Positions 1-15,307 of a DNA stretch of 15,307 bases are shown here, one piece after another; position 1 is the first letter of the stretch, and each line of letters begins with the position of its first letter. Made by a program: the position numbers and the translations under genes. Origin of the DNA: a virus (lineage: Duplodnaviria; Heunggongvirae; Uroviricota; Caudoviricetes). Where the stretch lies: IMG/VR virus record IMGVR_UViG_2617270953_000003, positions 1-15,307 of that record. One strand, written 5' to 3'. The notes under the pieces were generated by a model, which did not search any database, was not told the DNA's origin, and saw only the letters and a program-made list of their open reading frames with translations.

Positions 1-1
1 G

Positions 2-346
2 TTAGTCCTTGCGTAGCTCGCTGATTCTTCTGTAAGTCTCTGGTGCTTTGTTCCCGTACGTCTTCATTTCAGACTTCAACAGAGCAACGAGTGAATCCCA
101 TTCGTTGAGGATTCCTTTGAATGCCGGAACGCGCTTTGCAACCTTGTCGAATGAATCTCTGATTTCTGGAATCTGCTCAACAAGTGCAACGCATCGTCGG
201 AAATCTGCTGCGTCATGTGGAGCGCCGAAGTGATGACCATAGATATTCTTTTTCAGTCCACATGCGATTGAGGCAATAGTTGCGCTACTGATGCCGACAT
301 CGCCAGTCGATTGCCATTTCAAAACCTTCATAGCCAAATCTGACAT
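2..346 (-). CDS. hypothetical protein (about 114 aa), early-left accessory gene
   Basis: Complete ORF with stop at 2-4. The tracked ATG at 373 lies inside a terminator hairpin; the internal ATG at 344-346 (MSDLAMKV...) has a GGAGA Shine-Dalgarno about 7 nt upstream. No family recognised. Confidence 0.5.
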   Translation of the reverse strand: MSDLAMKVLKWQSTGDVGISSATIASIACGLKKNIYGHHFGAPHDAADFRRCVALVEQIPEIRDSFDKVAKRVPAFKGILNEWDSLVALLKSEMKTYGNKAPETYRRISELRKD

Positions 347-360
347 TTCTTGTCTCCAAT

Positions 361-382
361 AAAAAACCGCCATCAGGCGGCT
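361..382 (-). terminator. intrinsic terminator (5-bp GC stem ccgcc/ggcgg, 4-nt loop, T6 tail on minus strand)
   Basis: Plus strand reads aaaaaa-ccgcc-atca-ggcgg; read on the minus strand this is a hairpin followed by TTTTTT. Confidence 0.55.
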
Positions 383-446
383 TGGTGTTCTTTCAGTTCT
401 TCAATTCGAATATTGGTTACATTGTTTTCATATATGAATAAATAAA

Positions 447-626
447 TTAGCTTTTTTCGTTGCCTTCGCTTTCTTTATTAATTTTGACAAACTCGTTTTT
501 ACCACGCTCTCCAAATGCGTCTTTAGAGTCGTTGTATCCGCAATCGCAGCACACATAATCATCAGACCATCCACGCATTGTTTTTTCTTTTGCAATATTT
601 CCAGAACCGCATTTTGGACAAGACAT
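447..626 (-). CDS. small zinc-ribbon protein (59 aa, two CxxC pairs)
   Basis: ATG at 624-626 preceded by GGAGG at 7 nt spacing; protein MSCPKCGSG...CCDCGY has a CxxC...CxxC arrangement. Confidence 0.5.
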   Translation of the reverse strand: MSCPKCGSGNIAKEKTMRGWSDDYVCCDCGYNDSKDAFGERGKNEFVKINKESEGNEKS

Positions 627-722
627 ATCACTACCTCCAAAGCATGAGTGAGATGACAACGTAACATTGATTGGAGATTAACAATAGATTGCTGATGTAA
701 AAGATATGTATAAGCTTCGCTT

Positions 723-1361
723 TCAAAGTGGAGGCTCTGGTAGCGGCATCCAGTGTGACGGCTCACATACCCCCTCAACACCATTCATGTAAAAGAATTG
801 AAATAACCCTTTACCTTTGTGAAACCCTACCATCTGCTCTTTAGTGTCTGAGCAATAAACCAAAACATCTTCTTCGTTTGGCATTCGATCACTACAGCTT
901 ATCCAACCATCAGGAGTTACCGGAGAGTTGCCACCGGGAATATTTTCCGGAATATTTTGTTGTGCGTTTTGTGGTTGTTCGGATTTACCCTGAAGCATGG
1001 CGGCGCGGCAGGCGTTCCAGCCAGCTGTTCGCCCAAGCGCGTAAACTTCAGATGGCTCAAGATAATCAATGTCATGCCCATCCTCATCGTCGTTCTCAGG
1101 TAATGCAGCAGGTACTACCGGTACTGGCGGAGCGGCGTAGACTTCAATAATCCCATTATCAATAGGCCATTCCCCATCCTTGATGTAGTCACTTGTGCCG
1201 TCAACTTGCTGTTCTGCAATGTGGAATGCGCCAATAGGCTCTGCTTCCAGCGATGCCAGTGCGATTTCATAAGCCCGACGCTCAATATTGTCTCGGACGT
1301 CCAGGCTGCCTATACGCTCTTTGATTTCTTTAATCAGTTCTTTGTCGGTGAACGTTGTCAT
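723..1361 (-). CDS. DUF551-like phage protein (212 aa)
   Basis: C-terminal ...VLVYC...VGF...FF...HWMPLPEPP resembles the DUF551 signature common in lambdoid early-left regions; AAGGA RBS 5-6 nt upstream of the ATG. Confidence 0.55.
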   Translation of the reverse strand: MTTFTDKELIKEIKERIGSLDVRDNIERRAYEIALASLEAEPIGAFHIAEQQVDGTSDYIKDGEWPIDNGIIEVYAAPPVPVVPAALPENDDEDGHDIDYLEPSEVYALGRTAGWNACRAAMLQGKSEQPQNAQQNIPENIPGGNSPVTPDGWISCSDRMPNEEDVLVYCSDTKEQMVGFHKGKGLFQFFYMNGVEGVCEPSHWMPLPEPPL

Positions 1362-1371
1362 GTGTTAGTCC

Positions 1372-1635
1372 TTATCCTGCTGTGCTTTCAACTGATGAGG
1401 GGAATAAAATCTTTTCATCAAATCCGGCATTCATATCATGGACAGCAACACACCAATCCACCGACGAACGATTATCAAGAGCCTCCATGATTTCATCCAT
1501 GCGGCGTAGGTCATAAAGGTAAATGCTTTTATCGCCAATGGTGTAAAAACCAATTTTTTTCGGTGATGGACAGCGATCAAGAACGTCCTGTAATTCGCTC
1601 AACCATGCTTGTTCTTTTTTTGTCAAAGTTGCCAT
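1372..1635 (-). CDS. hypothetical protein (87 aa)
   Basis: ATG at 1633-1635 with AAGGAG RBS at 6 nt spacing; tightly packed against flanking genes. Confidence 0.5.
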   Translation of the reverse strand: MATLTKKEQAWLSELQDVLDRCPSPKKIGFYTIGDKSIYLYDLRRMDEIMEALDNRSSVDWCVAVHDMNAGFDEKILFPSSVESTAG

Positions 1636-1636
1636 A

Positions 1637-2128
1637 TCACTCTCCTTTGATGCGAATGCCAGTGGTACTCATTCTCCTGATTTCCCAGAGCACACGAGGA
1701 ACACCACCGTTTCCGACCGGATCGCGCTTACTCCGCATGGCGACGCTTGATTCCGCCCAGCTTTTTCTTGGAGGAAGCTCTTTCACACGAACAAAACCAG
1801 CTGCGCGAAGAGATGCTCCTGATTCATCTGCCTGGGTGTACGTAATACAACGTTGATAACCCATAGCCTTTGCTGCCCGCCAGACAGCACCATAAAGCGC
1901 GCTGTTAGCGTTGCGTTCTCCTGTGGTACATGTGCGATTTACTTCAAGCGTTAATCCATCGTCCAAATGTCGTGCAACAGGTCGACCAGCTGTCGCCACA
2001 CCTATCAATTCTCCGGCATTATTTCTCAGACCAATGCTGAATTTATGCCCCACTGGTGGTTTATTGTGTCGGTGGTGCTGTGCGATAAATTCCTGCGCCG
2101 CTTTCAGCGTTATAGGTGAAATGACCAT
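1637..2128 (-). CDS. hypothetical protein (163 aa), possibly GNAT-fold-like
   Basis: ATG at 2126-2128 with AGGAGG RBS; overlaps the upstream stop by 1 nt (TGATG). Weak GNAT-like pattern (...GVATAG..., ...ALYGAVWRAAKAMGY...AAGF). Confidence 0.5.
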   Translation of the reverse strand: MVISPITLKAAQEFIAQHHRHNKPPVGHKFSIGLRNNAGELIGVATAGRPVARHLDDGLTLEVNRTCTTGERNANSALYGAVWRAAKAMGYQRCITYTQADESGASLRAAGFVRVKELPPRKSWAESSVAMRSKRDPVGNGGVPRVLWEIRRMSTTGIRIKGE

Positions 2129-2607
2129 CACTCAGACTCCTCCTTGATGCCAGCGGCGCGGGAATCATTCCATCGCTTTACTTCTTCACTAATTACGTCA
2201 ATGCATTCTTTCGAATCCATTAGGTAATCTTCATCAAAAAGACGTTCCTGTTCGTTTTCTATCGCAACAATGATTGCTTCAACTAATTTTTGTGCCTGAG
2301 AATCACTTTCTAACTCTGCAATGCGCTTACTCCCATCCGAGATAACACCTTCGTAATACTCACGCTGCTCGTTGAGTTTTGATTTTGTCTCCTCAAGCTC
2401 AACACGCAGCTTCCCTACCGTTAGCGCAATATCCTCGTTCTCCTGGTCGCGGCGTTTGATGTATTGCTGGTTTCTTTCCCGTTCATCCAGTAGTGCCAGC
2501 ACAACCTGAGGTGTGACCTTCATACGAAATGCCAGCAATTTTTGTGGTGTGGCTGCTATTTTTATTGCTTCTGCCGCATCACGCAGTGCCTGATAGTCAA
2601 TTGTCAT
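2128..2607 (-). CDS. coiled-coil-rich phage protein (159 aa), Ea22-type slot
   Basis: ATG at 2605-2607 overlaps the upstream stop (ATGA). Sequence rich in E/K/R/L/Q heptad-like stretches. Confidence 0.5.
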   Translation of the reverse strand: MTIDYQALRDAAEAIKIAATPQKLLAFRMKVTPQVVLALLDERERNQQYIKRRDQENEDIALTVGKLRVELEETKSKLNEQREYYEGVISDGSKRIAELESDSQAQKLVEAIIVAIENEQERLFDEDYLMDSKECIDVISEEVKRWNDSRAAGIKEESE

Positions 2608-3248
2608 TCTCGCCATCCTTCACAGTTGTAATCACTACAGCCTTCAAAATCATATGGGCTGTACTGCCAGGAGATTTTTCCGCAATGCGGACAATTCCAA
2701 CGCACCTTCCCGCTTCGCGACTTCTTTCTTCTGTTCTGCTCTTTCAACCAGTCAGGCATGACCAAACCTGCGCCCTGAACCATTGTTCTGCGGTTAAAGT
2801 TATTGATATTGAACGTCCTGCGCTTTGCTGCATCAGCAATGGAAAATGGCAACCAAACTATTCCTGGTTCGTTTTTGTTGGCGACGCTAAAGATGGTCGC
2901 TTTACTGAAGTCATCTGTTGGCAATCCACCGTGTTGAAGCCAGTAAACATCGTTGCCGTTCCAGCTACCTTTTTTGTAGGCCACATACGCAGTGCAATCT
3001 GACTCAATCAGGCTTTCTGTAGGGATGTACTGGCAATCAACGTGCCACACTGCCATTGCATCCACGCTATCAGCGCAAACAGGCTGATCGATATCTCGCC
3101 CACAATTCCAGGCTTTTTGGGCTTCTTCCAGCGTGTAAACATGAGCGCGATCGATATCAGAACTGTAACCATTGCCGTTATGGCAATGGAATGAAGCGTT
3201 ATTGCCCACAGTTTCACGCGAGCACATCATGTAAAAACGGTTAGTCAC
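2604..3248 (-). CDS. hypothetical protein with Cys/His clusters (214 aa), GTG start
   Basis: AAGGAGG RBS (plus-strand cctcctt at 3255-3261) 6 nt upstream of GTG at 3246-3248, overlapping the upstream stop (GTGA). C-terminal CPHCG...C...C and N-terminal CHNGNG motifs. Confidence 0.5.
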
Positions 3249-3412
3249 TGGCTGCCTCCTTTGCGCCACATCGCATTCAGATATTTGTTTTCATTCACTG
3301 ATGGAAAAGAATTTCTCTTAAGTAATTCCTCTCTCGATGGCATTGGCTTTACGCGTTGGCGAATAATCATTTCTGCCGGAAGAATGCCGGGATTGTATGC
3401 AAGTCCTCTCAT
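3245..3412 (-). CDS. small hypothetical protein (55 aa)
   Basis: ATG at 3410-3412 with GAGGA RBS at 7 nt spacing; the longer tracked ORF (to 3562) overlaps the upstream gene and lacks an RBS. Confidence 0.35.
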
Positions 3413-3422
3413 GGTAAATTCC

Positions 3423-3716
3423 TCAGTCATTACTGATAGCGCCATAACGTGAGCGGTAATTACGCAGGCGCGGGTCAATTTCAGGGAAGTGGGTATATGT
3501 GGCTTTGCGGAATGGTCGGATTGATGTCTGGTAAATTCGCTCGCGTTCTTCTTTCTCTGCAAGCCATATACAGTGGCGAAATTCCTTTTCCTCTTTCGTT
3601 TCCTGCGGTAGAGACATTATCCGGTCGTAGTTTTTTCTGAATTTATCCAGCACCTCCGATACGGAATTGCCGGAACAGCGGCGCACGTCGTCCGCACCAT
3701 ACAGAGGCGCTGGCAT
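3423..3716 (-). CDS. Abc2-like (anti-RecBCD) candidate, 97 aa
   Basis: Sits promoter-distal to erf, where P22-like phages carry abc genes; similar size to P22 Abc2; AAGGA RBS. Identity is from recall and position only. Confidence 0.45.
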
Positions 3717-3739
3717 AATTAAATCCTTATTGTTCTAAA

Positions 3740-4123
3740 TCAGAATGGGATGGAATCGTCGTATACAGGAGTGTTCTGCTGGTTACTACTTTGCCGCTGC
3801 GGGCCATTTCCTGAAGCTGCAAATCCAATCTTTGCATTCAGTAATTCAAGAGTGATTGATTGACCATTTTGCCCCTGATAAACATCAACCCTGATGTTTT
3901 CTCCGGTAATTTCCACAATTCCACCTTCAACAAGAACACTACGGTAGTAATCCGCTTGCGCTCCCGGCTTGGCAAATACAACGGCGCTGTAGTTTATCCA
4001 TTCTTTCTTTTTTGTCTGGCGATCGTAATACTGAACGCCAGCACGGATGTTGAATCCGATATTTTCCCCGGCCTGAAACTCTCTTGCGGGCTTGTTTAGT
4101 CTTACAGTAATCGAATGTGCCAT
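3740..4123 (-). CDS. ssb: single-stranded DNA-binding protein (short SSB, 127 aa)
   Basis: C-terminal acidic tail ...PVYDDSIPF matches the SSB DDDIPF-type tail; ATG at 4121-4123 overlaps the erf stop (TAATG). Confidence 0.6.
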   Translation of the reverse strand: MAHSITVRLNKPAREFQAGENIGFNIRAGVQYYDRQTKKKEWINYSAVVFAKPGAQADYYRSVLVEGGIVEITGENIRVDVYQGQNGQSITLELLNAKIGFAASGNGPQRQSSNQQNTPVYDDSIPF

Positions 4124-4728
4124 TAAGCAGCCGCTCCTTCTAATTCGTCTCGTCTGATGTTGTAAACGTCCTGCGCTTTGTGCTGCTCCGGTGTGCCTTC
4201 GAGCATCTTCCACGCTTTGGCGAACGCCTGTTTAAGCTCTTCCACGGTGTTTTTCTGCATTGCTGCGTCAGTGAATGCTTTTAGAACCTGTTCAGGTGTA
4301 GGTGATGGTTTTGATTGCTTTGCTGCTGCGTTCTGCTGATGTTTATGCTCGTCTGTATCTGCATCTTTCGCATCATCAATGCCGAACAAACCATTAAGGC
4401 AATACTTGCGCGCATAAGAGCTTGTAGCTCCAGTAACTTGTGCAGAATCCATTCCTTTCTTGCTTTCTTCCTCTCTTGCGAGAGCGGTTGCCGTATGACT
4501 GTTTTCGCCATCGGTAATAGTTGCCGTGGCTTTCACGTAATACCGATCACCAATCAACACAACTTCATCGCTGATTGATAAAAACAGGCCATTCAGTAAC
4601 GGCTTAACGCCTTCAAGAATGTCTTCGCAGCTTCTGTATTTATATTTACCGAATGAGTTGTACTGATTCTTTGGCGCGTTCAGATTCTCCTGAATAGCTG
4701 CCAGTCTTGCATAAAATTCTTTGCTCAT
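4123..4728 (-). CDS. erf: Erf-family single-strand annealing recombinase (201 aa)
   Basis: N-terminus MSKEFYARLA...NAPKNQYNSFGKYKYRSCEDILEGVKPLL matches my recall of P22 Erf; ATG at 4726-4728. Confidence 0.8.
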   Translation of the reverse strand: MSKEFYARLAAIQENLNAPKNQYNSFGKYKYRSCEDILEGVKPLLNGLFLSISDEVVLIGDRYYVKATATITDGENSHTATALAREEESKKGMDSAQVTGATSSYARKYCLNGLFGIDDAKDADTDEHKHQQNAAAKQSKPSPTPEQVLKAFTDAAMQKNTVEELKQAFAKAWKMLEGTPEQHKAQDVYNIRRDELEGAAA

Positions 4729-4829
4729 ATGATTGTTCTCAGAATGGACACGGCCCAAGGAAATAACGCTGATTTAATACTTCTACTCGGGACAAATTAA
4801 GGCATACCCGCATTCCTTCGCGGTCGCCA

Positions 4830-4988
4830 TTATGGCGATACCAGAGAGCTTTCTGCGTGTACATGCGTCTCTGTAACTTGCTCTCCTTCACTGTGGTTGC
4901 AAGTGACATGAATATCTCCTTCGTTACCGATTAAATCTTTCATCTGACGAATGAATTCTTCGTCTGACCAGTTATCTGTAAAACTCAT
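4830..4988 (-). CDS. small hypothetical protein (52 aa) in the kil position
   Basis: ATG at 4986-4988 overlaps the stop of the CIII-like gene (ATGA coupling); no recognisable family. Confidence 0.4.
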   Translation of the reverse strand: MSFTDNWSDEEFIRQMKDLIGNEGDIHVTCNHSEGEQVTETHVHAESSLVSP

Positions 4989-5155
4989 GGGCGGCCTTGT
5001 TGTTTCAAAATATCCCAAAGCTTTTCGAGCAAGCTTTTCATTCTTGGTTGTTTAAAGTCTGCTCCGGTTAAAATATTTTTTCGTGAATGCTGCACCGATA
5101 AAATCGGGTTGAAAGGGCGAACCGATGCCGCCCCTGCAATAGCGAACTGTTGCAT
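4985..5155 (-). CDS. CIII-like protein (56 aa; FtsH/HflB inhibitor family)
   Basis: Start MQQFAIAG resembles lambda CIII MQYAIAG; amphipathic LLEKLWDILKQ segment; AAGGAG RBS 6 nt upstream of ATG at 5153-5155. Confidence 0.5.
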   Translation of the reverse strand: MQQFAIAGAASVRPFNPILSVQHSRKNILTGADFKQPRMKSLLEKLWDILKQQGRP

Positions 5156-5238
5156 AGGATGCTCCTTCTGTTTGATTGCATAACGAAAATGCCTCTCGTG
5201 AAGCATTATTGGTATGCGGTAAAGCCGCGCTTGGCGGC

Positions 5239-5655
5239 TTATTTGAAGATTTCTATGAAATCAAGAACTGATGATATTTCGTGGTTGAACGATTTTCTTT
5301 TGTATCTTTCTATCGCAGAATCCACCTGGTGTTTATAGTCATCGTCGTTTGAGTATTTAACGAAGCATTCTATTGTCTCAGGCGTTACAGCTATAAGGCT
5401 CCACCAACCTTCATCAGATTGATATTCAAATCCCATGCTTTCAAGCCATCCAGCATATTTCCCTCCAGCATCTTGCCAGTGTGTTTTTTCTGCAAGGAAG
5501 CTGTTAACCGTCATATGTGCATCAAGGCATTTATCCAACTGTTTACCATTAAGTAGCCATGCGCTGACAGTTGCACAACCCAAATCAACTGATTGAGTAG
5601 AGATATTGAATTGGTCGTAATTATCTGGATTAACCAGAATATCTGTAATTTTCAT
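5239..5655 (-). CDS. hypothetical acidic, Trp-rich protein (138 aa), ea10-position cargo
   Basis: ATG at 5653-5655 with GGAGG RBS at 4 nt; immediately preceded by an intrinsic terminator; no family recognised. Confidence 0.55.
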   Translation of the reverse strand: MKITDILVNPDNYDQFNISTQSVDLGCATVSAWLLNGKQLDKCLDAHMTVNSFLAEKTHWQDAGGKYAGWLESMGFEYQSDEGWWSLIAVTPETIECFVKYSNDDDYKHQVDSAIERYKRKSFNHEISSVLDFIEIFK

Positions 5656-5667
5656 AATTCCTCCGTC

Positions 5668-5696
5668 AAAAAAATTGCCCTCACACTGGAGGGCAA
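5668..5696 (-). terminator. intrinsic terminator within the pL operon (8-bp stem ttgccctc/gagggcaa, 6-nt loop, T7 tail on minus strand)
   Basis: Perfect 8-bp inverted repeat at 5675-5682 and 5689-5696 with an A7 run at 5668-5674 (T7 on the minus strand). Confidence 0.6.
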
Positions 5697-5830
5697 AGAA
5701 GATTTCCAATAATCAGAACAAGTCGGCTCCTGTTTAGTTACGAGCGACATTGCTCCGTGTATTCACTCGTTGGAATGAATACACAGTGCAGTGTTTATTC
5801 TGTTGTTTATGCCAAAAATGAAGGCCACCA

Positions 5831-6031
5831 TCAGGCAGCCTTGTTGTTCTGTTTACCAAGTTCTCTGGCAATCATTGCCGTCGTTCGTATTGCCCATTTA
5901 TCGACATATTTCCCATCCTCCATTACAGGAAACATTTCTTCAGGCTTAACCATGCATTCCGATTGCAGCTTGCATCCATTGCATCGCTTGAATTGTCCAC
6001 ACCATTGATTTTTATCAATAGTCGTAGTCAT
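5831..6031 (-). CDS. ral: Ral restriction-alleviation protein (66 aa)
   Basis: Sequence MTTTIDKNQWCGQFKRCNGCKLQSEC... matches my recall of lambda Ral; correct size and position downstream of N. Confidence 0.6.
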   Translation of the reverse strand: MTTTIDKNQWCGQFKRCNGCKLQSECMVKPEEMFPVMEDGKYVDKWAIRTTAMIARELGKQNNKAA

Positions 6032-6101
6032 ACGGATAGTCCTGGTATTGTTCCATCACATCCTGAGGATGCTCTTCGAACTCTTCAAATTCTTCTTCCA
6101 T
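6015..6101 (-). CDS. acidic 28-aa ORF (lambda orf28-like), overlaps ral start
   Basis: Hand-translated MEEEFEEFEEHPQDVMEQYQDYPYDYDY; GAGGTGA RBS 4-5 nt upstream of ATG at 6099-6101. Below the track's size cutoff. Confidence 0.3.
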   Translation of the reverse strand: MEEEFEEFEEHPQDVMEQYQDYPYDYDY

Positions 6102-6159
6102 ATATCACCTCAAATAAGTGGTTTGCTGCCTAATTTTATTTTCTGGCGACCAACACAAG

Positions 6160-6543
6160 TCATCTCGCCGTCAGTTGTTTTGATTTCCGGTATCCTGCTG
6201 CGTAAAGAGCTACATTTGGAAGACATACACCAGTTTCTGGTTGCTTATGTCCAAACTCATTCGCGTACACAATGGCCGCTCTCTCCAGATTGCGTCTGTA
6301 TTCTTTCTGTTGCCAGATCACGTCCTGTGCCATGAACTTAATTGGCTTAGCGTCTTCTATGCGCTCAGGCGTTTCGTGAGTACCTTTAGCCTGAATCTGC
6401 GCTCTGCTTAGAGTAGGGCGGTGTAATACTTCTGAACTTATTGCTTCTTCGCGGGCCAGTACGCCGTTAGCTAATGCCTTTGCCTTTAAACGCTCACGAC
6501 GACGAGAACGTGAATTGCCTTTGAACTGAGTTCTGCGTGTCAT
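6160..6543 (-). CDS. N: N-type transcription antiterminator, P22 gene-24-like (127 aa)
   Basis: AGGAGG RBS 6 nt upstream of ATG at 6541-6543; N-terminal arginine-rich motif RRTQFKGNSRSRRRERLKAK; C-terminus ...VALYAAGYRKSKQLTAR resembles P22 N; first gene after pL and nutL. Confidence 0.7.
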   Translation of the reverse strand: MTRRTQFKGNSRSRRRERLKAKALANGVLAREEAISSEVLHRPTLSRAQIQAKGTHETPERIEDAKPIKFMAQDVIWQQKEYRRNLERAAIVYANEFGHKQPETGVCLPNVALYAAGYRKSKQLTAR

Positions 6544-6671
6544 ATAGACCTCCTGGTGAACTTTGGCGGTGAATACAGCCGGGCGACTAACTCCGGTAGC
6601 GTAATCATTGCAAAGCGCCTCCGCCGAGAAGGTTAGCTTCTGCATTCACCCCAAAGTTCACTTTGGTTATT

Positions 6672-6686
6672 GCGCTTTGTCAGCGC
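6672..6686 (-). promoter_or_regulatory. nutL boxB hairpin, P22 type (GCGCUGACAAAGCGC on the transcript)
   Basis: Plus strand gcgctttgtcagcgc is the reverse complement of GCGCTGACAAAGCGC: 5-bp stem with GACAA loop, between pL and N. Confidence 0.7.
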
Positions 6687-6754
6687 CGTAGATTCATATT
6701 TGAATCGTTGTATATTCACCGCCCTGGTGAGTAGTGCGTCCTGCTGATGTGTTT

Positions 6755-6817
6755 AGTATCACCGCCAGTGGTATTTATGTCAACACCGCTAGAGATAATT
6801 CATCACCGCAGATGGTT
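6755..6817 (-). promoter_or_regulatory. OL1-OL2-OL3 operators and pL promoter (lambda immunity type)
   Basis: 17-mers tatcaccgccagtggta (6757-6773), caacaccgctagagata (6781-6797), catcaccgcagatggtt (6801-6817); on the minus strand -35 TTGACA (6778-6783) and -10 GATACT (6755-6760). Confidence 0.85.
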
Positions 6818-6902
6818 ATCTGTATGTTTTTTATATGAATTTATTTTTTGCAGGGGTGCATTGTTTGGTAGGTGAGAGATCTGAACTGCTATGTTTAGTG
6901 AG

Positions 6903-6932
6903 TTGTATCTATTTATTTTCAAATAGATACAA
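6903..6932. repeat. perfect 12-bp inverted repeat with 6-bp spacer (ttgtatctattt-attttc-aaatagatacaa)
   Basis: Arms 6903-6914 and 6921-6932 are exact reverse complements; AT-rich; lies between the tImm-like terminator and OL3. Confidence 0.6.
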
Positions 6933-6970
6933 TTGGTTATGTGTTCTTGGGTGAGGGGGATCGTGAGGCA

Positions 6971-6995
6971 AAGAAAACCCGGCTCTGTGGCCGGG
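6971..6995 (-). terminator. tImm-like intrinsic terminator ending the cI operon
   Basis: Stem cccggc/gccggg (6978-6983, 6990-6995), 6-nt loop, TTTTCTT tail on the minus strand; begins about 10 nt after the stop at 7004. Confidence 0.6.
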
Positions 6996-7003
6996 AATAA
7001 CAT

Positions 7004-7382
7004 TTAGGAATCAAGGTCAGGTAGCATGATTTTCTCAATCAACGTCAATGCCCTTTGGTCTCGTTCAGCAAAATATTTAGGAGCGTACTGAGGCAGCCAC
7101 ACTTCGTTGAAGTATTGTTTGAAATCTGCAATATTCGTTTGGGTATAGACGTACCGGGAATGTCCGGCCATCTGGGTACTCATGGTTATATGTTGGGAAT
7201 GTCTTCGGCTCACCCCCCCGGTTGTCACGGAGCCATTGCGAGAAAACCCTACCCTCTGAAATATCAGGGACCATTTTTTCTGGCAGCGTATATCCGGCCT
7301 GTTCAAGTGGCGCAACCAAGTTAAACGTCAGTTCATTAAGCATAGAAAAGTGCGTATGAGGAACTCTGCCTCGGTTTGTCAT
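7004..7382 (-). CDS. rex-slot ORF split across two frames: frame A 7077-7382 (101 aa) and frame B 7004-7327 (+1 offset); possible frameshifted gene
   Basis: Two overlapping minus-strand ORFs offset by +1 share a C7 tract (7213-7219; G7 on the coding strand) and an A6/T6 tract (7275-7280). Frame B ends 10 nt before the terminator; frame A has a poor RBS. Confidence 0.35.
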
Positions 7383-7421
7383 ATACCGCTTAAGGTGGAT
7401 AGGGAGTTCGGCAGGCGCTCT

Positions 7422-7763
7422 TTAACCTGACATCCACTCACGCACCCATCTCGATACTTGCACTGCAAATTTTGGAGATAGCCACTGAGCTAAATTAATT
7501 GCGATGTCTGGATGAACCCAAGTCCCTTGATTCTCTGCTCTTCCGCCTTTAAATGATTGAATTAACTCCGATATGGGAATCCCCATATCGCGTGATAATT
7601 CATCAAAAAAATCTTGTGTTGTTTTTAGTCGTGTATAGTCAGCAAGTAGCTTCCCCGCAGACTTGCACATCGCGGTGGCATTGATGTATCCGTCTTTGGT
7701 GCGAAGATGGATGACTTCTCCATCAACTTCTCTAGCGATTAATGCAAGTTGAAATTGTGTCAT
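7422..7763 (-). CDS. KilA-N domain protein (113 aa), directly downstream of cI
   Basis: Motifs DGYINATAMCK...GTWVHPDIAINLAQWLSPKFAVQVSRWV are typical of the KilA-N (APSES-like) DNA-binding domain; AGGA RBS; starts 31 nt after the cI stop. Confidence 0.75.
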   Translation of the reverse strand: MTQFQLALIAREVDGEVIHLRTKDGYINATAMCKSAGKLLADYTRLKTTQDFFDELSRDMGIPISELIQSFKGGRAENQGTWVHPDIAINLAQWLSPKFAVQVSRWVREWMSG

Positions 7764-7794
7764 AAATCATCCTATTACGTGAAAAATAAAACAA

Positions 7795-8511
<717 letters not shown>

Positions 8512-8518
8512 TTAAATC

Positions 8519-8584
8519 TATCACCGCAAGGGATAAACTTCTAACACCGTGCGTGTTGACTATTTTACCTCTAGCGGTGATAAT
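8519..8584. promoter_or_regulatory. OR3-OR2-OR1 operators with divergent pRM (minus) and pR (plus) promoters
   Basis: OR3 tatcaccgcaagggata (8519-8535), OR2 taacaccgtgcgtgttg (8542-8558), OR1 tacctctagcggtgata (8566-8582); pR -35 TTGACT (8556-8561) and -10 GATAAT (8579-8584) with 17-bp spacing. Confidence 0.9.
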
Positions 8585-8608
8585 GGTTGCCTGTACTAAG
8601 GAGGTTGT

Positions 8609-8809
8609 ATGGAACAACGCATAACCCTGAAAGATTATGCAATACGCTTTGGGCAAACCAAGACGGCTAAAGATCTCGGCGTATATCAAAGCGCGATTAA
8701 CAAGGCCATTCATGCAGGCCGAAAGATTTTTTTAACTATAAACGCTGATGGAAGCGTTTATGCGGAAGAAATAAAGCCCTTCCCAAGTAACAAAAAAACA
8801 ACTGCATAA
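8609..8809 (+). CDS. cro: Cro repressor, lambda type (66 aa)
   Basis: Sequence matches my recall of lambda Cro apart from about two conservative substitutions; AAGGAGG RBS. Confidence 0.95.
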
Positions 8810-8816
8810 GTAACAC

Positions 8817-8862
8817 CGCTCTTTTCACAATGGACATTCGTCCTACGTCGCTGACAAAGCGA
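8817..8862 (+). promoter_or_regulatory. nutR: boxA-like CGCTCTTTT (8817-8825) and P22-type boxB tcgct-gacaa-agcga (8848-8862)
   Basis: Same GACAA-loop, 5-bp-stem hairpin as nutL; located between cro and the cII-like gene. Confidence 0.65.
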
Positions 8863-8892
8863 GCCCCAAGATATCTGACCAACTAAGGCCAT

Positions 8893-8908
8893 ATGCGTTT
8901 CCACGCAT
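8893..8908 (+). terminator. weak hairpin (atgcgt-ttcc-acgcat) in the tR1 position
   Basis: 6-bp stem and 4-nt loop with a poor T tail; lambda tR1 is Rho-dependent, so a role here is uncertain. Confidence 0.25.
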
Positions 8909-8946
8909 ACCTTTCAACTAACTATTCACTATTGGAAAATTAACAA

Positions 8947-9243
8947 ATGACACAAGCAAGTTATAGCAAGCCAACACAGCGAGAAATTGATCGCGCTGAA
9001 ACTGATTTACTCATCAACCTGTCAACGCTTACCCAGCGCGGTCTGGCAAAGATGATTGGCTGTCATGAATCGAAGATAAGCAGAACGGACTGGAGGTTTA
9101 TTGCTTCGGTCTTGTGTGCTTTCGGAATGGCATCAGACATCAGTCCGATTAGCAGGGCTTTTAAGTATGCATTGGATGGAATCACAAAGAAAAAATCCCC
9201 GGCCGCCACCGAGGATTTTAAGCAAATTGATATGCAATTCTGA
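8947..9243 (+). CDS. cII: CII-like transcriptional activator (98 aa), not the lambda allele
   Basis: Helix-turn-helix region ...GLAKMIGCHESKISRTDW... and C-terminal KKKSPAATEDFKQIDMQF parallel lambda CII, but overall sequence is divergent. Confidence 0.7.
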   Translation: MTQASYSKPTQREIDRAETDLLINLSTLTQRGLAKMIGCHESKISRTDWRFIASVLCAFGMASDISPISRAFKYALDGITKKKSPAATEDFKQIDMQF

Positions 9244-9275
9244 GGTCATTACTGGATCAATCTACAGGAGTAATT

Positions 9276-9437
9276 ATGACAAAACGTCGTAAGAAATACC
9301 AGGAAAAAGAAGAGATTCGACACCCTGATTCACCTGAGGGATTAGTGGTAGCCGCAGCAAATAACAGGGCGTTCGCAGAGCGCCTTGTTGGTGTTTACAG
9401 ACTAGCCAAAGTAGGAGTGAAACATGGGCGTCGTTAA
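9276..9437 (+). CDS. small basic ORF (53 aa) between cII and the replication gene
   Basis: Hand-translated MTKRRKKYQEKEEIRHPDSPEGLVVAAANNRAFAERLVGVYRLAKVGVKHGRR; CAGGAG RBS 5 nt upstream of the ATG; 3' end overlaps the replication-gene start by 14 nt. Confidence 0.35.
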   Translation: MTKRRKKYQEKEEIRHPDSPEGLVVAAANNRAFAERLVGVYRLAKVGVKHGRR

Positions 9438-10314
9438 GTTAGCTGATTACAGGCATAACCCTGTACAACATCAGGAGGCATCCAGTATGGGGTATGTCTC
9501 TATACACCGCCAGTTTATGGACAGCAGGCTCTATAAGGACTCTCAGGCAGTACATCTTTGGCTTCACTTAATCCTCAAGGCTAATCACGAATCTACTGTC
9601 GTCAATACGGATATCGGTCCGATAACTGTTGATCGCGGTCAGATGATAACTGGACGCCCGTCGCTGGTCAGAGAAACATTCATCCCCGACAACAAAGTTC
9701 GGAGCTTATTACGGACTTTTGAGTCGAAAGGTATGCTTAATATTTGCTCGATGGGGAAGAAATTTAGCCTGTTTACAATCGTTAAATATGACGATTTTCA
9801 GGCAAAAAATTGTCCAACGGTTGTCCAACAGTTGTCCAACGCAAACACCAGTAATGGTGCGGCTCTCAGCGGAGATTGTCCAACGGTTGTCCAACAGTTG
9901 TCCATAAACAATAATATAAATAATATCTCTAATACTGACGTATTAGAGAGTGCTACAGCAGACAAAAAGTCTGACAAGAAAAAACCTTCCGTCAGCTGTC
10001 AGGATGTTGTCGATGCTTACCACGAAATCCTTCCTGAAGCGCCAAGAATCCGCGCACTGAATGACAAGCGTAAAAACCAGATCCGAACGTTCTGGCGCAA
10101 AGCCGGAGTGATAACCCGCCAGCTTGACGGACATGGGTTCACGATGCAGGACTGGAGAAATTATTTGAGCTACGTAGGCGAAAATTGCCGATGGATGTTC
10201 GAAGAGCGTCCAAACCATCAACGCGGAACTGTCTGGCACAAAAAGGGATTTGATTTCCTGCTTAACGATAATACCTACCTGAAAGTTCGTGAGGGTGAAC
10301 ACGATGACCGATAA
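9424..10314 (+). CDS. replication initiator (O-like, non-lambda allele) with the origin inside the gene
   Basis: AGGAG RBS; O-type N-terminal region; iteron array embedded in the coding sequence (encoding repeated CPTVVQQLS); followed by a DnaB-family helicase gene. Confidence 0.8.
   Translation: MGVVKLADYRHNPVQHQEASSMGYVSIHRQFMDSRLYKDSQAVHLWLHLILKANHESTVVNTDIGPITVDRGQMITGRPSLVRETFIPDNKVRSLLRTFESKGMLNICSMGKKFSLFTIVKYDDFQAKNCPTVVQQLSNANTSNGAALSGDCPTVVQQLSINNNINNISNTDVLESATADKKSDKKKPSVSCQDVVDAYHEILPEAPRIRALNDKRKNQIRTFWRKAGVITRQLDGHGFTMQDWRNYLSYVGENCRWMFEERPNHQRGTVWHKKGFDFLLNDNTYLKVREGEHDDR
9810..9950. repeat. origin iterons: two copies of a 3 x TTGTCCAAC array (9810-9840 and 9876-9906) plus AT-rich tract (9906-9950)
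   Basis: ttgtccaacGGttgtccaacAGttgtccaac occurs twice about 66 bp apart (last unit of the second copy is ttgtccata), followed by aaacaataatataaataatatctctaatactgacgtattagag. Confidence 0.8.
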
Positions 10315-11740
10315 TTTTTATGCGCCGCCCCATAGCATCGAGGCAGAGCAGGCGGTGATTGGTGGATTGCTTCTGGATGATGACAGCAGTGAGCGCGTCC
10401 AGAAGGTTCTGGCGATGCTGAAGCCTGATTCATTTTACAGCCGGCCACACAAAATCCTTTTCGAAGAAATAACCAGAATGCACCGGGAGCAAAAGCCAGT
10501 AGATGGCCTGACGCTTTTCGATGAACTGGAGCGTAAATCGTTAACTGTGTCTGTTGGCGGTTTTGCTTATATCGCTGAGATCGCAAAGAACACGCCAAGC
10601 GCAGCAAACATCGTTGCCTATGCAATGCAGGTTCGTGAAACCGCAATGGAACGCTACGCCATCAACCGCATGACTGAAGCGACGGAATTGCTCTATTCCC
10701 GCAACGGAATGACTGCAACGCAGAAGTACGAAGCTATTCAGTCGATTTTCACGCAACTGACAGACCATGCAAAAACCGGATCGCGTCGCGGCCTTCGTTC
10801 ATTTGGTGAGGTCATGGAAGACTGGGTTAGCGACCTTGAGAAGCGATTTGACCCATCAGGCGAACAACGGGGAATGAGCACAGGGATCCCATCGCTGGAC
10901 AGGATGCTGTCACCGAAAGGTCTGGTGAAAGGCTCTCTGTTTGTCATTGGCGCTCGCCCTAAGATGGGGAAAACGACGCTATACAGCCAGATGGCAATCA
11001 ATTGCGCAGTGCATGAGAAAAAGCCCGCTTTGATGTTCAGCCTTGAAATGCCAGGTGATCAGATACTGGAAAAACTGGTAGGGCAGAAGTCTGGTGTTAA
11101 CCCGAATATTTTTTACCTTCCGGCGACAAATGACGCTGATGACGGCTATCAGGGTGATTACGATGGTGACTTCAACAGGGCGATCGAAACAGCCAATCGC
11201 TTGAGTGAAATCGACCTGCTTTACATCGACGACACGCCGGGATTATCTCTGGCTCAAATCGTCAGCGAAAGTCGTCGAATCAAGCGAGAAAAAGGATGTG
11301 TTGGCATGATTCTGGTCGATTACCTGACACTAATGACCGCTGAGAAGGCCGATCGCAACGACCTTGCTTACGGCATGATCACCAAAGGACTGAAGAACCT
11401 TGCCAAAGAGCTTGATTGTGTTGTTGTGCTTCTGACACAGCTTAACCGCGCACTGGAAAGCCGAACCAATAAACGCCCATTACCAAGTGACTCCCGAGAT
11501 ACAGGGCAGATTGAACAGGATTGCGATTATTGGGTTGGGATCCATCGTGAAGGTGCTTTTGATGACAGTGTTCCACCTGGTGAAACCGAACTAATCCTTC
11601 GTCTCAATCGTCATGGCAATACCGGCACGGTGTATTGCATTCAGGCAAATGGAGCTATTTATGACACAGACCAACAGTCTGCTGAAATGCGCCGCCGTGA
11701 ACGCGAGGAACCGCAGTCCAAGAAGAAAGGAGGATTCTGA
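10304..11740 (+). CDS. DnaB-family replicative helicase (P22 gene-12-like), 478 aa
   Basis: N-terminus ...FYAPPHSIEAEQAVIGGLLLD... is the classic DnaB start; Walker A GARPKMGKT; ATG at 10304 overlaps the end of the upstream gene. Confidence 0.9.
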   Translation: MTDNFYAPPHSIEAEQAVIGGLLLDDDSSERVQKVLAMLKPDSFYSRPHKILFEEITRMHREQKPVDGLTLFDELERKSLTVSVGGFAYIAEIAKNTPSAANIVAYAMQVRETAMERYAINRMTEATELLYSRNGMTATQKYEAIQSIFTQLTDHAKTGSRRGLRSFGEVMEDWVSDLEKRFDPSGEQRGMSTGIPSLDRMLSPKGLVKGSLFVIGARPKMGKTTLYSQMAINCAVHEKKPALMFSLEMPGDQILEKLVGQKSGVNPNIFYLPATNDADDGYQGDYDGDFNRAIETANRLSEIDLLYIDDTPGLSLAQIVSESRRIKREKGCVGMILVDYLTLMTAEKADRNDLAYGMITKGLKNLAKELDCVVVLLTQLNRALESRTNKRPLPSDSRDTGQIEQDCDYWVGIHREGAFDDSVPPGETELILRLNRHGNTGTVYCIQANGAIYDTDQQSAEMRRREREEPQSKKKGGF

Positions 11741-11768
11741 TGACCATCTACATCACTGAGCTAATAAC

Positions 11769-11800
11769 AGGCCTGCTGGTAATCGCAGGCCTTTTTATTT
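11769..11800 (+). terminator. tR2-like intrinsic terminator (8-bp stem aggcctgc/gcaggcct, 8-nt loop, TTTTTATTT tail)
   Basis: Perfect inverted repeat at 11769-11776 and 11785-11792 followed by a T-rich run, between the helicase gene and ninB. Confidence 0.65.
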
Positions 11801-11816
11801 GGGGGAGAGGGAAGTC

Positions 11817-12257
11817 ATGAAAAAACTAACCTTTGAAATTCGATCTCCGGCACATCAGCAAAACGCTATTCACGCAGTACAGCAAATCCTTCCAGACCCA
11901 ACCAAGCCAATCGTAGTGATCATTCAGGAGCGCAACCGCAGCTTAGACCAGAATCGGAAGCTTTGGGCTTGCCTTGGTGACGTCTCTCGTCAGGTTGAAT
12001 GGCATGGGCGTTGGCTGGATGCAGAAAGCTGGAAGTGTGTGTTTACCGCAGCATTAAAGCAGCAGGACGTTGTTCCTAACCTTGCCGGGAATGGCTTTGT
12101 GGTAATAGGCCAGTCAACCAGCAGGATGCGTGTAAGCGAATTTGCGGAGTTATTAGAGCTTATACAGGCATTCGGTACAGAGCGTGGCGTTAAGTGGTCA
12201 GACGAAGCGCGACTGGCTCTGGAGTGGAAAGCGAGATGGGGAGACAGTGCTGCATGA
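11817..12257 (+). CDS. ninB: NinB (Orf family recombination mediator)
   Basis: Protein MKKLTFEIRSPAHQQNAIHAVQQILPDPTKPIVV... matches my recall of lambda NinB; real start is the internal ATG at 11817. Confidence 0.9.
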   Translation: MKKLTFEIRSPAHQQNAIHAVQQILPDPTKPIVVIIQERNRSLDQNRKLWACLGDVSRQVEWHGRWLDAESWKCVFTAALKQQDVVPNLAGNGFVVIGQSTSRMRVSEFAELLELIQAFGTERGVKWSDEARLALEWKARWGDSAA

Positions 12258-12781
12258 CTATCAAATCAAATACGCCAGCACACGACAAGGACTGCTGGCA
12301 AACGCCGCTCTGGCTTTTTGATGCACTGGATATTGAGTTTGGATTCTGGCTGGATTCGGCAGCGAGCGACAAAAATGCTCTGTGCGCTCACTGGCTAACT
12401 GAGGCTGACAACGCGCTCAATTCTGAGTGGATAAGCCACGGTGCAATCTGGAATAACCCACCGTACAGCAATATCAGGCCGTGGGTGGAAAAAGCCGCTG
12501 AGCAGTGCATACAACAGCGACAGACGGTAGTGATGCTTGTGCCAGAGGATATGTCAGTCGGATGGTTCAGCAAGGCTCTGGAGAGTGTTGACGAAGTTCG
12601 TATTATCACTGATGGACGGATTAATTTTATCGAACCATCGACAGGGCTGGAGAAAAAGGGAAACAGCAAAGGCTCCATGCTGCTGATTTGGCGACCGTTC
12701 ATCAGTCCTCGACGGATGTTTACTACCGTATCCAAAGCGGCATTGATGGCGATCGGGCAGGGCGTCAGGAGGGCAGCATGA
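12254..12781 (+). CDS. dam: phage DNA N6-adenine methyltransferase (Dam family), in the ninC/ninD slot
   Basis: Catalytic NPPY motif (IWNNPPYSN); ATGA overlap with the ninB stop; size about 175 aa. Confidence 0.8.
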
Positions 12782-12960
12782 GACGACAGCGACGAAGTAT
12801 CACCGACATCATCTGCGAAAACTGCAAATACCTTCCAACGAAGCGCTCCAGAAATAAATGCAAGCCAATCCCAAAAGAATCTGACGTAAAAACCTTCAAC
12901 TACACGGCTCACCTGTGGGATATCCGGTGGCTTAGAGAACGTGCGAGGAAAACAAGGTGA
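12778..12960 (+). CDS. ninE: NinE (60 aa)
   Basis: [27 protein letters not shown]... matches my recall of lambda NinE; ATGA overlap with the dam stop. Confidence 0.85.
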
Positions 12961-13127
12961 TTGACCAAAATCGAAGTTACGAACAAGGAAGTGTCGAGCG
13001 AGCTTTAACGTGCGCTAACTGCGGTAAGAAGCTGCATGTGCTGGAAGTTCACGTGTGTGAGCACTGCTGCGCAGAACTGATGAGCGATCCGAATAGCTCA
13101 ATGTACGAGGAAGAAGACGATGAATGA
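12957..13127 (+). CDS. ninF: NinF (56 aa, GTG start, four-Cys motif)
   Basis: Hand-translated (V/M)[55 protein letters not shown]; GTGA overlap with the ninE stop; resembles lambda NinF. Confidence 0.8.
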
Positions 13128-13842
13128 GTTAATAAATGGCAATGCCATCAAAATGACAAGCATTGAAATCGCTGAGTTGGTTGGTAAGCGTCATGACAAT
13201 GTGAAACGTACCATCGAAACGCTGGCTAAAAATGGTGTTATCCGGCTTCCTCAAATTGAGGATTGTGGAAGAATCAATGGGTTAGGCTTAAATCAAAGTT
13301 TTTGTGTGTATGTATTCGAAGGCGAACAAGGAAAGCGAGACAGTATTGTCGTTGTAGCCCAGTTGTCGCCGGAATTCACCGCTCGTCTTGTTGACCGTTG
13401 GCGAGAGCTTGAAGAAACTGCGGTTAATATCCCCAAAACGCTACCAGAAGCGTTGCGCCTTGCTGCTGATCTTGCTGAGCAGAAAATGCAACTGGAAAAC
13501 CAGCTCGCAATTGCCGCACCTAAAGTTGAGTTTGCCGATCGCGTTGGCGAGGCCAGCGGAATTTTGATTGGAAACTTTGCAAAGGTTGTTGGAATTGGTC
13601 CAAACAAACTGTTTGCGTGGATGCGCGATCACAAAATCCTTATTGCTTCAGGTTCCCGGCGCAATGTGCCAATGCAGGAATATATGGATCGCGGCTATTT
13701 CACAGTGAAAGAAACAGCGGTCAACACAAATCACGGAATACAGATATCGTTCACCACAAAAATCACCGGCCGTGGTCAACAGTGGCTGACCAGAAAGCTG
13801 CTCGATAACGGAATGCTGAAAGTAACAGGGGAGGCTGCTTAA
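13120..13842 (+). CDS. phage antirepressor-like protein (Rha-type N-terminal region plus KilAC/ANT-type C-terminal region), Roi-like, 240 aa
   Basis: N-terminus ...MTSIEIAELVGKRHDNVKRTIETLAKNGVI... is Rha-family-like; C-terminal half resembles antirepressor KilAC; GAGGAAG RBS; overlaps the ninF end. Confidence 0.65.
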   Translation: MNELINGNAIKMTSIEIAELVGKRHDNVKRTIETLAKNGVIRLPQIEDCGRINGLGLNQSFCVYVFEGEQGKRDSIVVVAQLSPEFTARLVDRWRELEETAVNIPKTLPEALRLAADLAEQKMQLENQLAIAAPKVEFADRVGEASGILIGNFAKVVGIGPNKLFAWMRDHKILIASGSRRNVPMQEYMDRGYFTVKETAVNTNHGIQISFTTKITGRGQQWLTRKLLDNGMLKVTGEAA

Positions 13843-14132
13843 TGGCTAACCTACGCAAAGAAGCGCGCGGCAGAGAATGCCAGGTACGTATTTACGGCGT
13901 ATGCAATGGTAATCCTGAAACTACAGTTCTGGCACATTACCGGATGGCTGGAATTTGCGGAACGGGAATGAAGCCTGACGACCTGATCGGCGCATGGGCT
14001 TGTAGCGCGTGTCACGATGAAATCGATCGACGTACCCATAACCTCGACAACAAAGACGCCAGACTTTACCACCTCGAAGGCGTAATCAGGACGCAGGCGA
14101 TACTGCTGAAGGAGGGGAAGATTAAGTCATGA
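13842..14132 (+). CDS. ybcO: YbcO-like DUF1364 protein (putative nuclease, 96 aa)
   Basis: MANLRKEARGRECQVRIYGVCNGNPETTVLAH...CSACHDEIDRR resembles DLP12 YbcO; TAATG overlap upstream and ATGA overlap downstream. Confidence 0.7.
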   Translation: MANLRKEARGRECQVRIYGVCNGNPETTVLAHYRMAGICGTGMKPDDLIGAWACSACHDEIDRRTHNLDNKDARLYHLEGVIRTQAILLKEGKIKS

Positions 14133-14524
14133 AAACCTACCGAATAAAATTGCCGTGGCCTCCTTCAAACAACCGATATTGGCGACACTCAAGAGGGATC
14201 CACTACATCAGCGACTGGGGGAAGAGATACCGAAAAGAAGTAATCGAATTAATCCAGCAACAACAGCTAGACATCAAAATCACACCTCGCATCAGAATAA
14301 CCATCCACGCAGCACCTCCCGATAACCGCAAACGAGATTTGGACAATCTGCCCAAAGCCGTTTTTGACGCACTCACCAGTGCGGGCTTCTGGCTGGATGA
14401 CGGTCAGATAGACGATATGCGCATCAAGCGCTATCAGGCGATTAAAGGTGGAATGCTTGTGTTGGTTGTGACTGAAACATGCGGGAGTTTGCCAATGATT
14501 ACAGAGCTACTGGAGGCCGCATGA
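14129..14524 (+). CDS. rusA: RusA Holliday-junction resolvase (131 aa)
   Basis: M.TY.I.LPWPPSNNRYWRH...RDLDNL.KAVFDALTSAGFWLDD matches the RusA signature. Confidence 0.85.
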   Translation: MKTYRIKLPWPPSNNRYWRHSRGIHYISDWGKRYRKEVIELIQQQQLDIKITPRIRITIHAAPPDNRKRDLDNLPKAVFDALTSAGFWLDDGQIDDMRIKRYQAIKGGMLVLVVTETCGSLPMITELLEAA

Positions 14525-14727
14525 CGTTCTCAGTAAAAACCATTCCAGACATGCTCGTTGAAGCATACGGAAACCAGACAGAAGTAGCACGCAGACTGAA
14601 ATGTAGTCGCGGCACGGTAAGAAAATACGTTGATGATAAAGACGGGAAAATGCACGCCATCGTCAACGACGTTCTCATGGTTCATCGCGGATGGAGTGAA
14701 AGAGATGCGCTATTACGAAAGAATTGA
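14521..14727 (+). CDS. ninH: NinH (68 aa)
   Basis: [68 protein letters not shown] matches my recall of lambda NinH; ATGA overlap with the rusA stop. Confidence 0.85.
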
Positions 14728-15307
14728 TGGCAGCAAATACCGAAATATTTGGGTAGTTGGCGATCTGCACGGTTGCTACACGAACCTGATGAACAAACTG
14801 GATACGATTGGATTCGACACCAAAAAAGACCTGCTTATCTCGGTTGGCGATTTGGTCGATCGCGGTACAGAGAACGTTGAATGCCTGGAATTAATCACAT
14901 TCCCCTGGTTCATAGCTGTACGTGGAAACCATGAGCAAATGATGATTGATGGCTTATCAGAGCGTGGAAACGTCAATCACTGGCTGCTTAATGGCGGTGG
15001 CTGGTTCTTTAATCTCGATTACGACAAAGAAATTCTGGCTAAAGCTCTTGCCCATAAAGCAGATGAACTTCCGTTAATCATTGAACTGGTGAGCAAAGGT
15101 AAAAAATATGTTATCTGCCACGCCGATTATCCTTGTGACGAATACGAGTTTGGAAAGCCAGTTGTTCATCAGCAGGTAATCTGGAACCGCGAACGAATCA
15201 GCAACTCACAAGACGGGATCGTAAAAGAAATCAAAGGAGCGGACACGTTCATCTTTGGTCATACGCCAGCAGTGAAACCACTCAAGTTTGCCAACCAAAT
15301 GTATATC
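14705..15307 (+). CDS. ninI: Ser/Thr protein phosphatase NinI (lambda PPase / orf221 family), 3' end beyond window
   Basis: Frame 2 from ATG at 14705 translates [29 protein letters not shown]...GDLVDRG...RGNHE..., the metallophosphatase GDxHG/GDxxDRG/GNHE motifs; absent from the track because no stop occurs before the window end. Confidence 0.85.

Follow-up and report, generated by a model that had tools for sequence, protein, structure and literature searches.

The Roi protein of phage HK022 is reportedly a helix-turn-helix DNA-binding protein, whose site lies within its own gene next to a site for integration host factor (IHF), and IHF is said to stabilise the binding. Wild-type HK022 Roi is further said to block lytic growth in IHF-deficient hosts, with escape mutants mapping in roi. 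To our knowledge, the study from which these accounts stem (Clerget and Boccard 1996, J Bacteriol 178:4077) is the sole experimental work on the Roi family. Passages in PMC3430580 and PMC4587872, citing Clerget and Boccard 1996, call Roi a DNA-binding protein implicated in lytic growth. Here, we analysed a stretch of 15,307 nucleotides from a virus of the Caudoviricetes (IMG/VR record IMGVR_UViG_2617270953_000003, positions 1 to 15,307), referred to as the window throughout, with regard to one gene of its nin region. Judging from its sequence, this gene is roi, the accessory DNA-binding gene known from HK022, HK97 and HK620. We consider it probable that it represents an allelic roi, whose product would be a delayed-early regulator that binds DNA at specific sites, in the manner of HK022 Roi.

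Identity and domain architecture of the gene

The gene starts with an ATG, stops with a TAA and encodes a product of 240 residues, as seen from the open reading frame list and by reading the sequence. In BLASTP searches, this product showed 95% identity to HK620 Roi (AAK28878), 88% to HK022 Roi (over 240/241 residues, E 1e-157) and 87% to HK97 Roi. A chance reading frame was ruled out by the E values of 1e-157 to 1e-173 obtained against annotated Roi proteins. An earlier sequence-only reading of the window had noted that HK022-type phages carry roi at this place, and the gene is indeed roi, in the same order as in HK022. The annotated loci of HK022, HK97 and HK620 have the order ninF-roi-gp66/hkbD-rusA-ninH-Q in common, and in the window roi likewise lies between ninF and ybcO. 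Both neighbours had been named as such before and are supported by Pfam (NinF, 46.2 bits; YbcO, 150.1 bits). The HK620 protein, with the same length of 240 residues, occupies the same slot after ninF and before hkbD/ybcO. Gene, position and family were described between 1996 and 2001, and the exact sequence is present in RefSeq; in these respects the gene is already known.

The gene and the parts of its product are as follows.
13120..13842, + strand: roi coding sequence (open reading frame list; identities to HK620, HK022 and HK97 Roi as given above)
13153..13416, + strand: N-terminal Rha-type winged-helix domain, residues 12-99 (Pfam and structural model)
13183..13311, + strand: variable allele cassette, residues ~22-64, predicted recognition helix and wing (differences to HK022, HK97 and HK620; entropy; synonymous divergence)
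13441..13515, + strand: long linker helix between the domains, residues 108-132 (AlphaFold model, pLDDT about 60-70)
13495..13803, + strand: C-terminal ANT/KilAC domain, residues 126-228, near-invariant between alleles (PF03374)

The two-part architecture that had been proposed, i.e., a Rha-like N-terminus followed by a KilAC C-terminus, was recovered in Pfam, the former part only marginally. ANT/KilAC (PF03374) covers residues 126-228 and positions 1-106 of the 108 profile positions, scoring 113.4 bits (cut-off 25.3). Phage_pRha (PF09669) covers residues 12-99 and passes with 33.5 bits (cut-off 29.9). HK022 Roi remains below this cut-off (25.2 bits), whereas the window protein lies above it, and the NCBIfam Rha model TIGR02681 stays below its threshold for the window Roi (17.3 bits vs 45.95). 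The traits described for Roi are an N-terminal helix-turn-helix and a C-terminal KilAC domain like that of P1 Ant1 and KilA; here they are matched through PF03374 and the modelled winged helix (see below), rather than through a direct alignment to P1 Ant1 or KilA. The window Roi also matches the profile of PHROG 63, named 'anti-repressor Ant', with an E value of 6.5e-96. Searches with PADLOC defence models returned zero matches for Roi, YbcO and NinF at E values up to 0.01, and no solved structure was detectable from the Roi sequence.

Distribution of roi

A megablast search of phage genomes with the ninE-rusA stretch returned HK140, HK97, HK620, HK022, HK75, mEpX1, CUS-3 and many Stx phages. 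The gene under these matches is labelled 'roi', 'DNA-binding protein Roi' or, in RefSeq re-annotations, 'anti-repressor Ant'. Among 5426 complete E. coli genomes, 1107 (about a fifth) contain roi DNA, nearly always on the chromosome, and at least 80% of the length of roi is present in 971 E. coli genomes. DNA 100% identical to the window roi was found in E. coli ET151 and ET450; its product is WP_001519597.1, which is annotated in ET450 as 'phage antirepressor KilAC domain-containing protein'. The ET450 copy sits in a P22-like (HK620-type) prophage beside dsdC; in other parts, this prophage and the window differ.

Among the database relatives, some exceed Roi in length, namely proteins of 299-304 residues, 294-residue proteins with NinB and KilAC, and a 331-residue protein with YbcO, Rha and KilAC. 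They may be fusions that arose via deletion or frameshift, or gene-calling artefacts at the overlapping junctions. Full-length proteins with Rha and KilAC domains that are ~38% identical to Roi are common across marine Vibrio phages and metagenomes. An HNH endonuclease and a NinB homologue are encoded a few genes downstream of the roi-like gene of Vibrio phage D331 (2986-3654 of the examined locus); this arrangement suggests that the neighbourhood is loosely conserved well past the lambdoid phages.

A variable cassette in the N-terminal domain

The differences between the window protein and its relatives are unevenly distributed. In comparison to HK022 and HK97 Roi, they fill residues 22-64, while residues 1-21 are identical and residues 64-240 nearly so. 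HK022 Roi has the same synteny and the same KilAC domain as the window protein, but it carries a different allele of the whole recognition-helix and wing cassette (residues 22-64), and the two proteins differ in length by one residue. In comparison to HK620 Roi, the differences are nearly all found at residues 48-63: ten of the 11 substitutions fall within this segment, where the N-terminal winged helix is predicted to have its wing. Column entropy, determined from an alignment of 79 cluster representatives being 83-95% identical to the window protein, peaks at residues ~22-64, with a milder second zone at residues 99-131. At least five discrete cassette types exist among these representatives, and the cassette of the window ('...PQIEDCGRINGLGLNQSFCVY...') belongs to the HK620 type, of which it is a rarer sub-variant.

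Synonymous divergence (dS) and its ratio to non-synonymous divergence (dN/dS) were obtained as Nei-Gojobori estimates.
Against HK022, residues 21-66: dS 1.12, dN/dS about 0.5
Against HK620, residues 45-66: dS 1.06, dN/dS about 0.4
Against HK620 and HK022, residues 67-240: dS 0.09-0.11, dN/dS 0.03-0.05

Thus, synonymous divergence is saturated in the cassette and ~tenfold above that in the rest of the gene. This jump shows recombinational import and not recent adaptive point mutation; the cassette is an old, diverged sequence that was imported by a mosaic swap. We rejected diversifying selection as an explanation for the variable patch, because dS is saturated too and dN/dS stays below 1, and mosaic recombination fits better. 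The G+C content is 0.41-0.43 at 13075-13374, i.e., the 5' third of roi including the cassette, while the nin genes around it have about 0.46-0.55. This dip is consistent with a different origin of that segment.

An AlphaFold2 model was built from a 119-sequence alignment that included distant Vibrio-phage relatives. The model has a mean predicted local distance difference test score (pLDDT) of 74 and a predicted template modelling score (pTM) of 0.37; the domain blocks reach pLDDT values of 80-90, and their mutual orientation is not confident. The N-terminal module consists of a strand (residues 11-13), two helices (residues 14-21 and 25-37), a β-hairpin (residues 45-52/58-67) and further helices spanning residues 68-101. 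Its predicted fold is that of a winged helix, with the variable cassette as the putative recognition helix and wing. The KilAC module is formed by helices at residues 150-157 and 161-170, a hairpin at residues 194-215 and a helix at residues 217-229, and in the model it likewise resembles a helix-turn-helix with a wing.

The cassette can also be set against the immunity type of the phage. The CI repressor of the window (7795-8508, - strand) is 99% identical to HK97 CI and 43% identical to HK620 CI, and we take its type to be lambda-type immunity (HK97-like). The gene resides in a lambdoid prophage with lambda/HK97-type immunity. The nin region of the window, unlike its HK97-like CI, finds its nearest counterparts in HK620-, HK140- and Stx-type phages, and such a combination is a typical lambdoid mosaic. 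The window and HK97 share their CI yet differ in the Roi cassette; the window and HK620 share the cassette type, though their CI identity is merely 43%. From the sequences of the three phages compared, the Roi cassette type appears to be independent of the immunity type. The mapping of the cassette to the predicted recognition helix and wing, its recombinational import and this independence are only mildly new.

Operon context and module boundaries

The surroundings of roi comprise the following elements.
11769..11792, + strand: tR2-like intrinsic terminator upstream of ninB (terminator scan; arms AGGCCTGC...GCAGGCCT, then TTTTATTT)
11799-12257: NinB, upstream of roi
12194-12781, + strand: Dam-type N6-adenine methyltransferase, between ninB and ninE and overlapping both (PF05869, 218.8 bits)
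12688-12960: NinE, upstream of roi
12957..13127, + strand: NinF, upstream neighbour of roi in the same operon (Pfam NinF)
13107..13127, + strand: ninF/roi junction, with a Shine-Dalgarno-like GAGG located 9 nt ahead of the ATG and an overlap of 8 nt between roi start and ninF stop (sequence reading)
13839..13844, + strand: roi/ybcO junction TAATG, stop and next start overlapping (sequence reading)
13842..14132, + strand: YbcO, homologue of HK97 gp66 and HK620 hkbD, downstream neighbour of roi (Pfam YbcO)
14129-14524: RusA, downstream of YbcO
14479-14727: NinH, downstream of RusA

The slot of the methyltransferase gene is occupied by gp62 in HK97, while HK620 runs from ninB straight into ninE.

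In the junction alignment, the window, HK022 and P22 are identical from the 3' end of ninF through the ATG. Past this ATG, P22 continues into ninG (GCTAAATCAGCG...), and the window and HK022 continue into roi. P22 joins ninF to ninG at the same ATG that opens roi, and the description of the gene as inserted in the nin region, as given by the sequence-only reading, is borne out by this junction. At the other end, roi closes with TAATG, and the next three letters are GCT, in each of the four phages compared (window, HK022, HK620 and an Stx2 phage). Beyond it lies the ybcO homologue in the window, HK022 and HK620, and a different, ninG-like sequence (GCTAAACCAGCG...) in the Stx2 phage. Therefore, roi is a precise module set between two start codons. 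In the Stx2a phage Stx2_8048 (1441-1500 of the examined locus), roi is found without ninF before it; a terminator-like hairpin (CCCAGCTTCGGCTGGG then TTTTTTATT) and an own GAGG ribosome-binding site lie upstream instead. Therefore, the upstream context of roi is mosaic as well.

The tR2-like hairpin is strong, has an 8-bp stem with six GC pairs and is followed by TTTTATTT, and HK620 annotates tR2 at the position equivalent to 11769-11792. We infer that N antitermination through this terminator governs the nin genes including roi. A consensus scan revealed no promoter-like site within 500 nt upstream of roi; the single promoter-like site in 11500-15307 lies at 12579 inside the methyltransferase gene, compared to a mean of 4.1 in shuffled sequence. 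LexA-box-like sites were likewise absent between 10441 and 15307. Both scans were consensus-based, and atypical promoters would escape them. Judging from this layout, roi would be a delayed-early gene of the P_R transcript, being transcribed only after loss of CI, once N antiterminates through tR2, and would be translationally coupled to both ninF and ybcO. Because roi is placed in the P_R operon behind the tR2-like terminator and has neither its own LexA box nor its own promoter-like site, it cannot start the induction of its own prophage.

A terminator-like hairpin (CGTTGGCGAGGCCAGCG then GAATTTTGAT) was also seen inside roi at 13542-13558 (+ strand), at the start of the KilAC domain. With six terminator-like sites seen in the 3.8-kb region and 3.4 expected, it may well be due to chance.

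Candidate binding sites within roi

With regard to the Roi site and the adjacent IHF site described for HK022, we inspected the coding sequence for cis elements.
13272..13284, + strand: candidate IHF core site AATCAATGGGTTA (consensus WATCAANNNNTTR; consensus scan, status uncertain)

AATCAATGGGTTA is the sole match to the IHF core in roi on either strand, and it occupies gene nucleotides 153-165 in the window, HK620, HK022 and HK97. As judged by eye, the core is present in the common Stx-type allele and absent from one rarer allele. With two IHF matches in the whole window and 0.98 expected, the match is not significant alone, and the site overlaps the codons of the conserved I-N-x-L-G motif. 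A palindrome at gene nucleotides 129-143 reads TCCTCAAATTGAGGA in the window and in HK620, and HK022 has a palindrome of different sequence, CTGCATTGCAG, at the same place. In two Stx-type alleles nothing is found at this position, and no palindrome is conserved across all alleles. These palindromes were rejected as evidence of a Roi operator, every allele holding about 4-9 short palindromes. Direct and inverted repeats within 13050-13900 were limited to short two-copy matches at chance level.

Comparison to P22 Ant and P22 Rha

The sequence-only reading had proposed an alignment to both HK022 Roi and P22 Ant. The similarity to HK022 Roi is evident (88%, E 1e-157), whereas the link to P22 Ant did not hold. 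P22_AR_N (PF10547) and P22_AR_C (PF10548), both present in P22 Ant, were not found by Pfam in Roi, and P22 Ant in turn lacks the domains of Roi. BLASTP yielded merely a local match of 37 residues with 25 bits. Given the different Pfam families and this trivial match, homology to P22 Ant was rejected. The genetic setting differs too: unlike roi, P22 ant lies in the immI region and has its own promoter, Arc/Mnt operators and the sar antisense RNA. The only point common to the two proteins is the annotation word 'antirepressor'.

P22 Rha shares the Phage_pRha N-terminal domain with Roi, with a local match of 44 residues at 30% identity. Its C-terminal domain is ORF11CD3 and not KilAC, and rha is located after the lysis genes, outside the nin region. 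Henthorn and Friedman are said to have found in 1995 that rha likewise blocks phage growth in IHF-deficient hosts.

Roi as a probable regulator and alternative roles

For the window gene, we have established what it is, its synteny and domain architecture, its mosaic structure and its operon context. Its product would be a two-module protein, in which a Rha-type winged helix with an exchangeable specificity cassette is connected by a long helix to an almost invariant KilAC domain. From its homology to HK022 Roi, the window protein would bind DNA site-specifically with the aid of host IHF and would modulate lytic growth; it would not trigger induction through inactivation of a repressor. Two roles had been put forward for an antirepressor-like gene at this place, namely cross-induction of other prophages or function as a DNA-binding lytic-growth factor. 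The latter is the better-supported half; our analysis yielded no positive support for cross-induction.

A classical antirepressor would inactivate CI-type repressors, as P1 Ant1 does, and would cross-induce other prophages after the induction of its own. P1 Ant1 carries a KilAC domain, the Pfam family of this domain is named for phage antirepressors, and databases label Roi 'anti-repressor Ant'. Moreover, ~36% of the roi-positive E. coli genomes could hold more than one prophage copy (up to four places per genome), so that targets in trans would be available. We nevertheless regard this role as very unlikely. Roi lacks similarity to P22 Ant, a proven repressor binder, and without a separate promoter or LexA box roi would be switched on only after its own repressor is gone. 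Cassette and CI type do not co-vary among the three phages, it is the predicted DNA-recognition helix and wing that vary, and the sole characterised homologue is described as a DNA-binding protein in the passages cited above. Induction-type antirepressors (P22 ant, 186 tum, Gifsy, N15) are characterised by a promoter of their own, a trait that consensus scans did not find for roi, whose start overlaps ninF.

The gene could also be a decaying or non-functional passenger of a defective prophage. The gene is dispensable, since it is absent from P22 and, as far as we know, from lambda, and since in some Stx phages roi is interrupted by IS629 (PMC4587872). However, the reading frame of the window gene is intact, purifying selection outside of the cassette is strong (dN/dS 0.03-0.05), the translational-coupling junctions are kept and copies are widespread, with at least 80% of the gene in the 971 genomes mentioned above. 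A passenger is thus extremely improbable.

A role that would be compatible with DNA binding is a dual function like that of AriS, in which the invariant KilAC domain damps the host SOS response, probably via RecA, and the N-terminal domain regulates phage genes. In Listeria AriS, as in Gp42 of phage A118, the KilAC domain blocks SOS induction (Azulay et al. 2022, PMC9043618), and AriS-like proteins swap AntA/B, Bro-N or pRha N-termini, the N-terminal domain regulating the phage itself. With pRha and KilAC, Roi has the architecture that defines this family in PMC9043618. The KilAC domain of Roi shares 32% identity (E 1e-16) with its counterpart in A118 Gp42, which in contrast to the pRha-bearing Roi has an AntA/B N-terminal domain and belongs to a Gram-positive phage, and 41% with phiEf11, which is named AriS-like in the same paper. 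The near-invariance of residues 67-240 (dN/dS 0.03-0.05) would fit a conserved host target. On the other hand, an identity of 32% across phyla does not transfer function, an SOS effect of any enterobacterial Roi was not found in the literature searched, and the effect of AriS required overexpression and was not seen at native levels (PMC9043618). We therefore consider an AriS-like dual function unlikely, and an allelic roi encoding a site-specific DNA-binding regulator remains our preferred reading.

A more far-reaching idea would regard Roi as a modular regulator with two targets. The cassette of residues 22-64 would read DNA, and the own coding DNA near 13272-13284 would carry the matching site, so that specificity and operator are inherited together. 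The KilAC domain would act on a host factor, e.g. by damping of RecA/SOS as in AriS, and Roi would thereby coordinate co-resident prophages in polylysogenic E. coli. We put this forward as speculation with little chance of being correct as a whole.

Taken together, our analysis bears mainly on how the gene is annotated and perceived. The label 'anti-repressor Ant', found in PHROG 63 and in RefSeq phage records, derives solely from the name of the KilAC domain. Roi is under-studied, although about 20% of the complete genomes of E. coli contain roi DNA and Stx phages are among its carriers. For annotation, it is of practical value that roi is unrelated to P22 Ant and that its layout is unlike that of an induction trigger.
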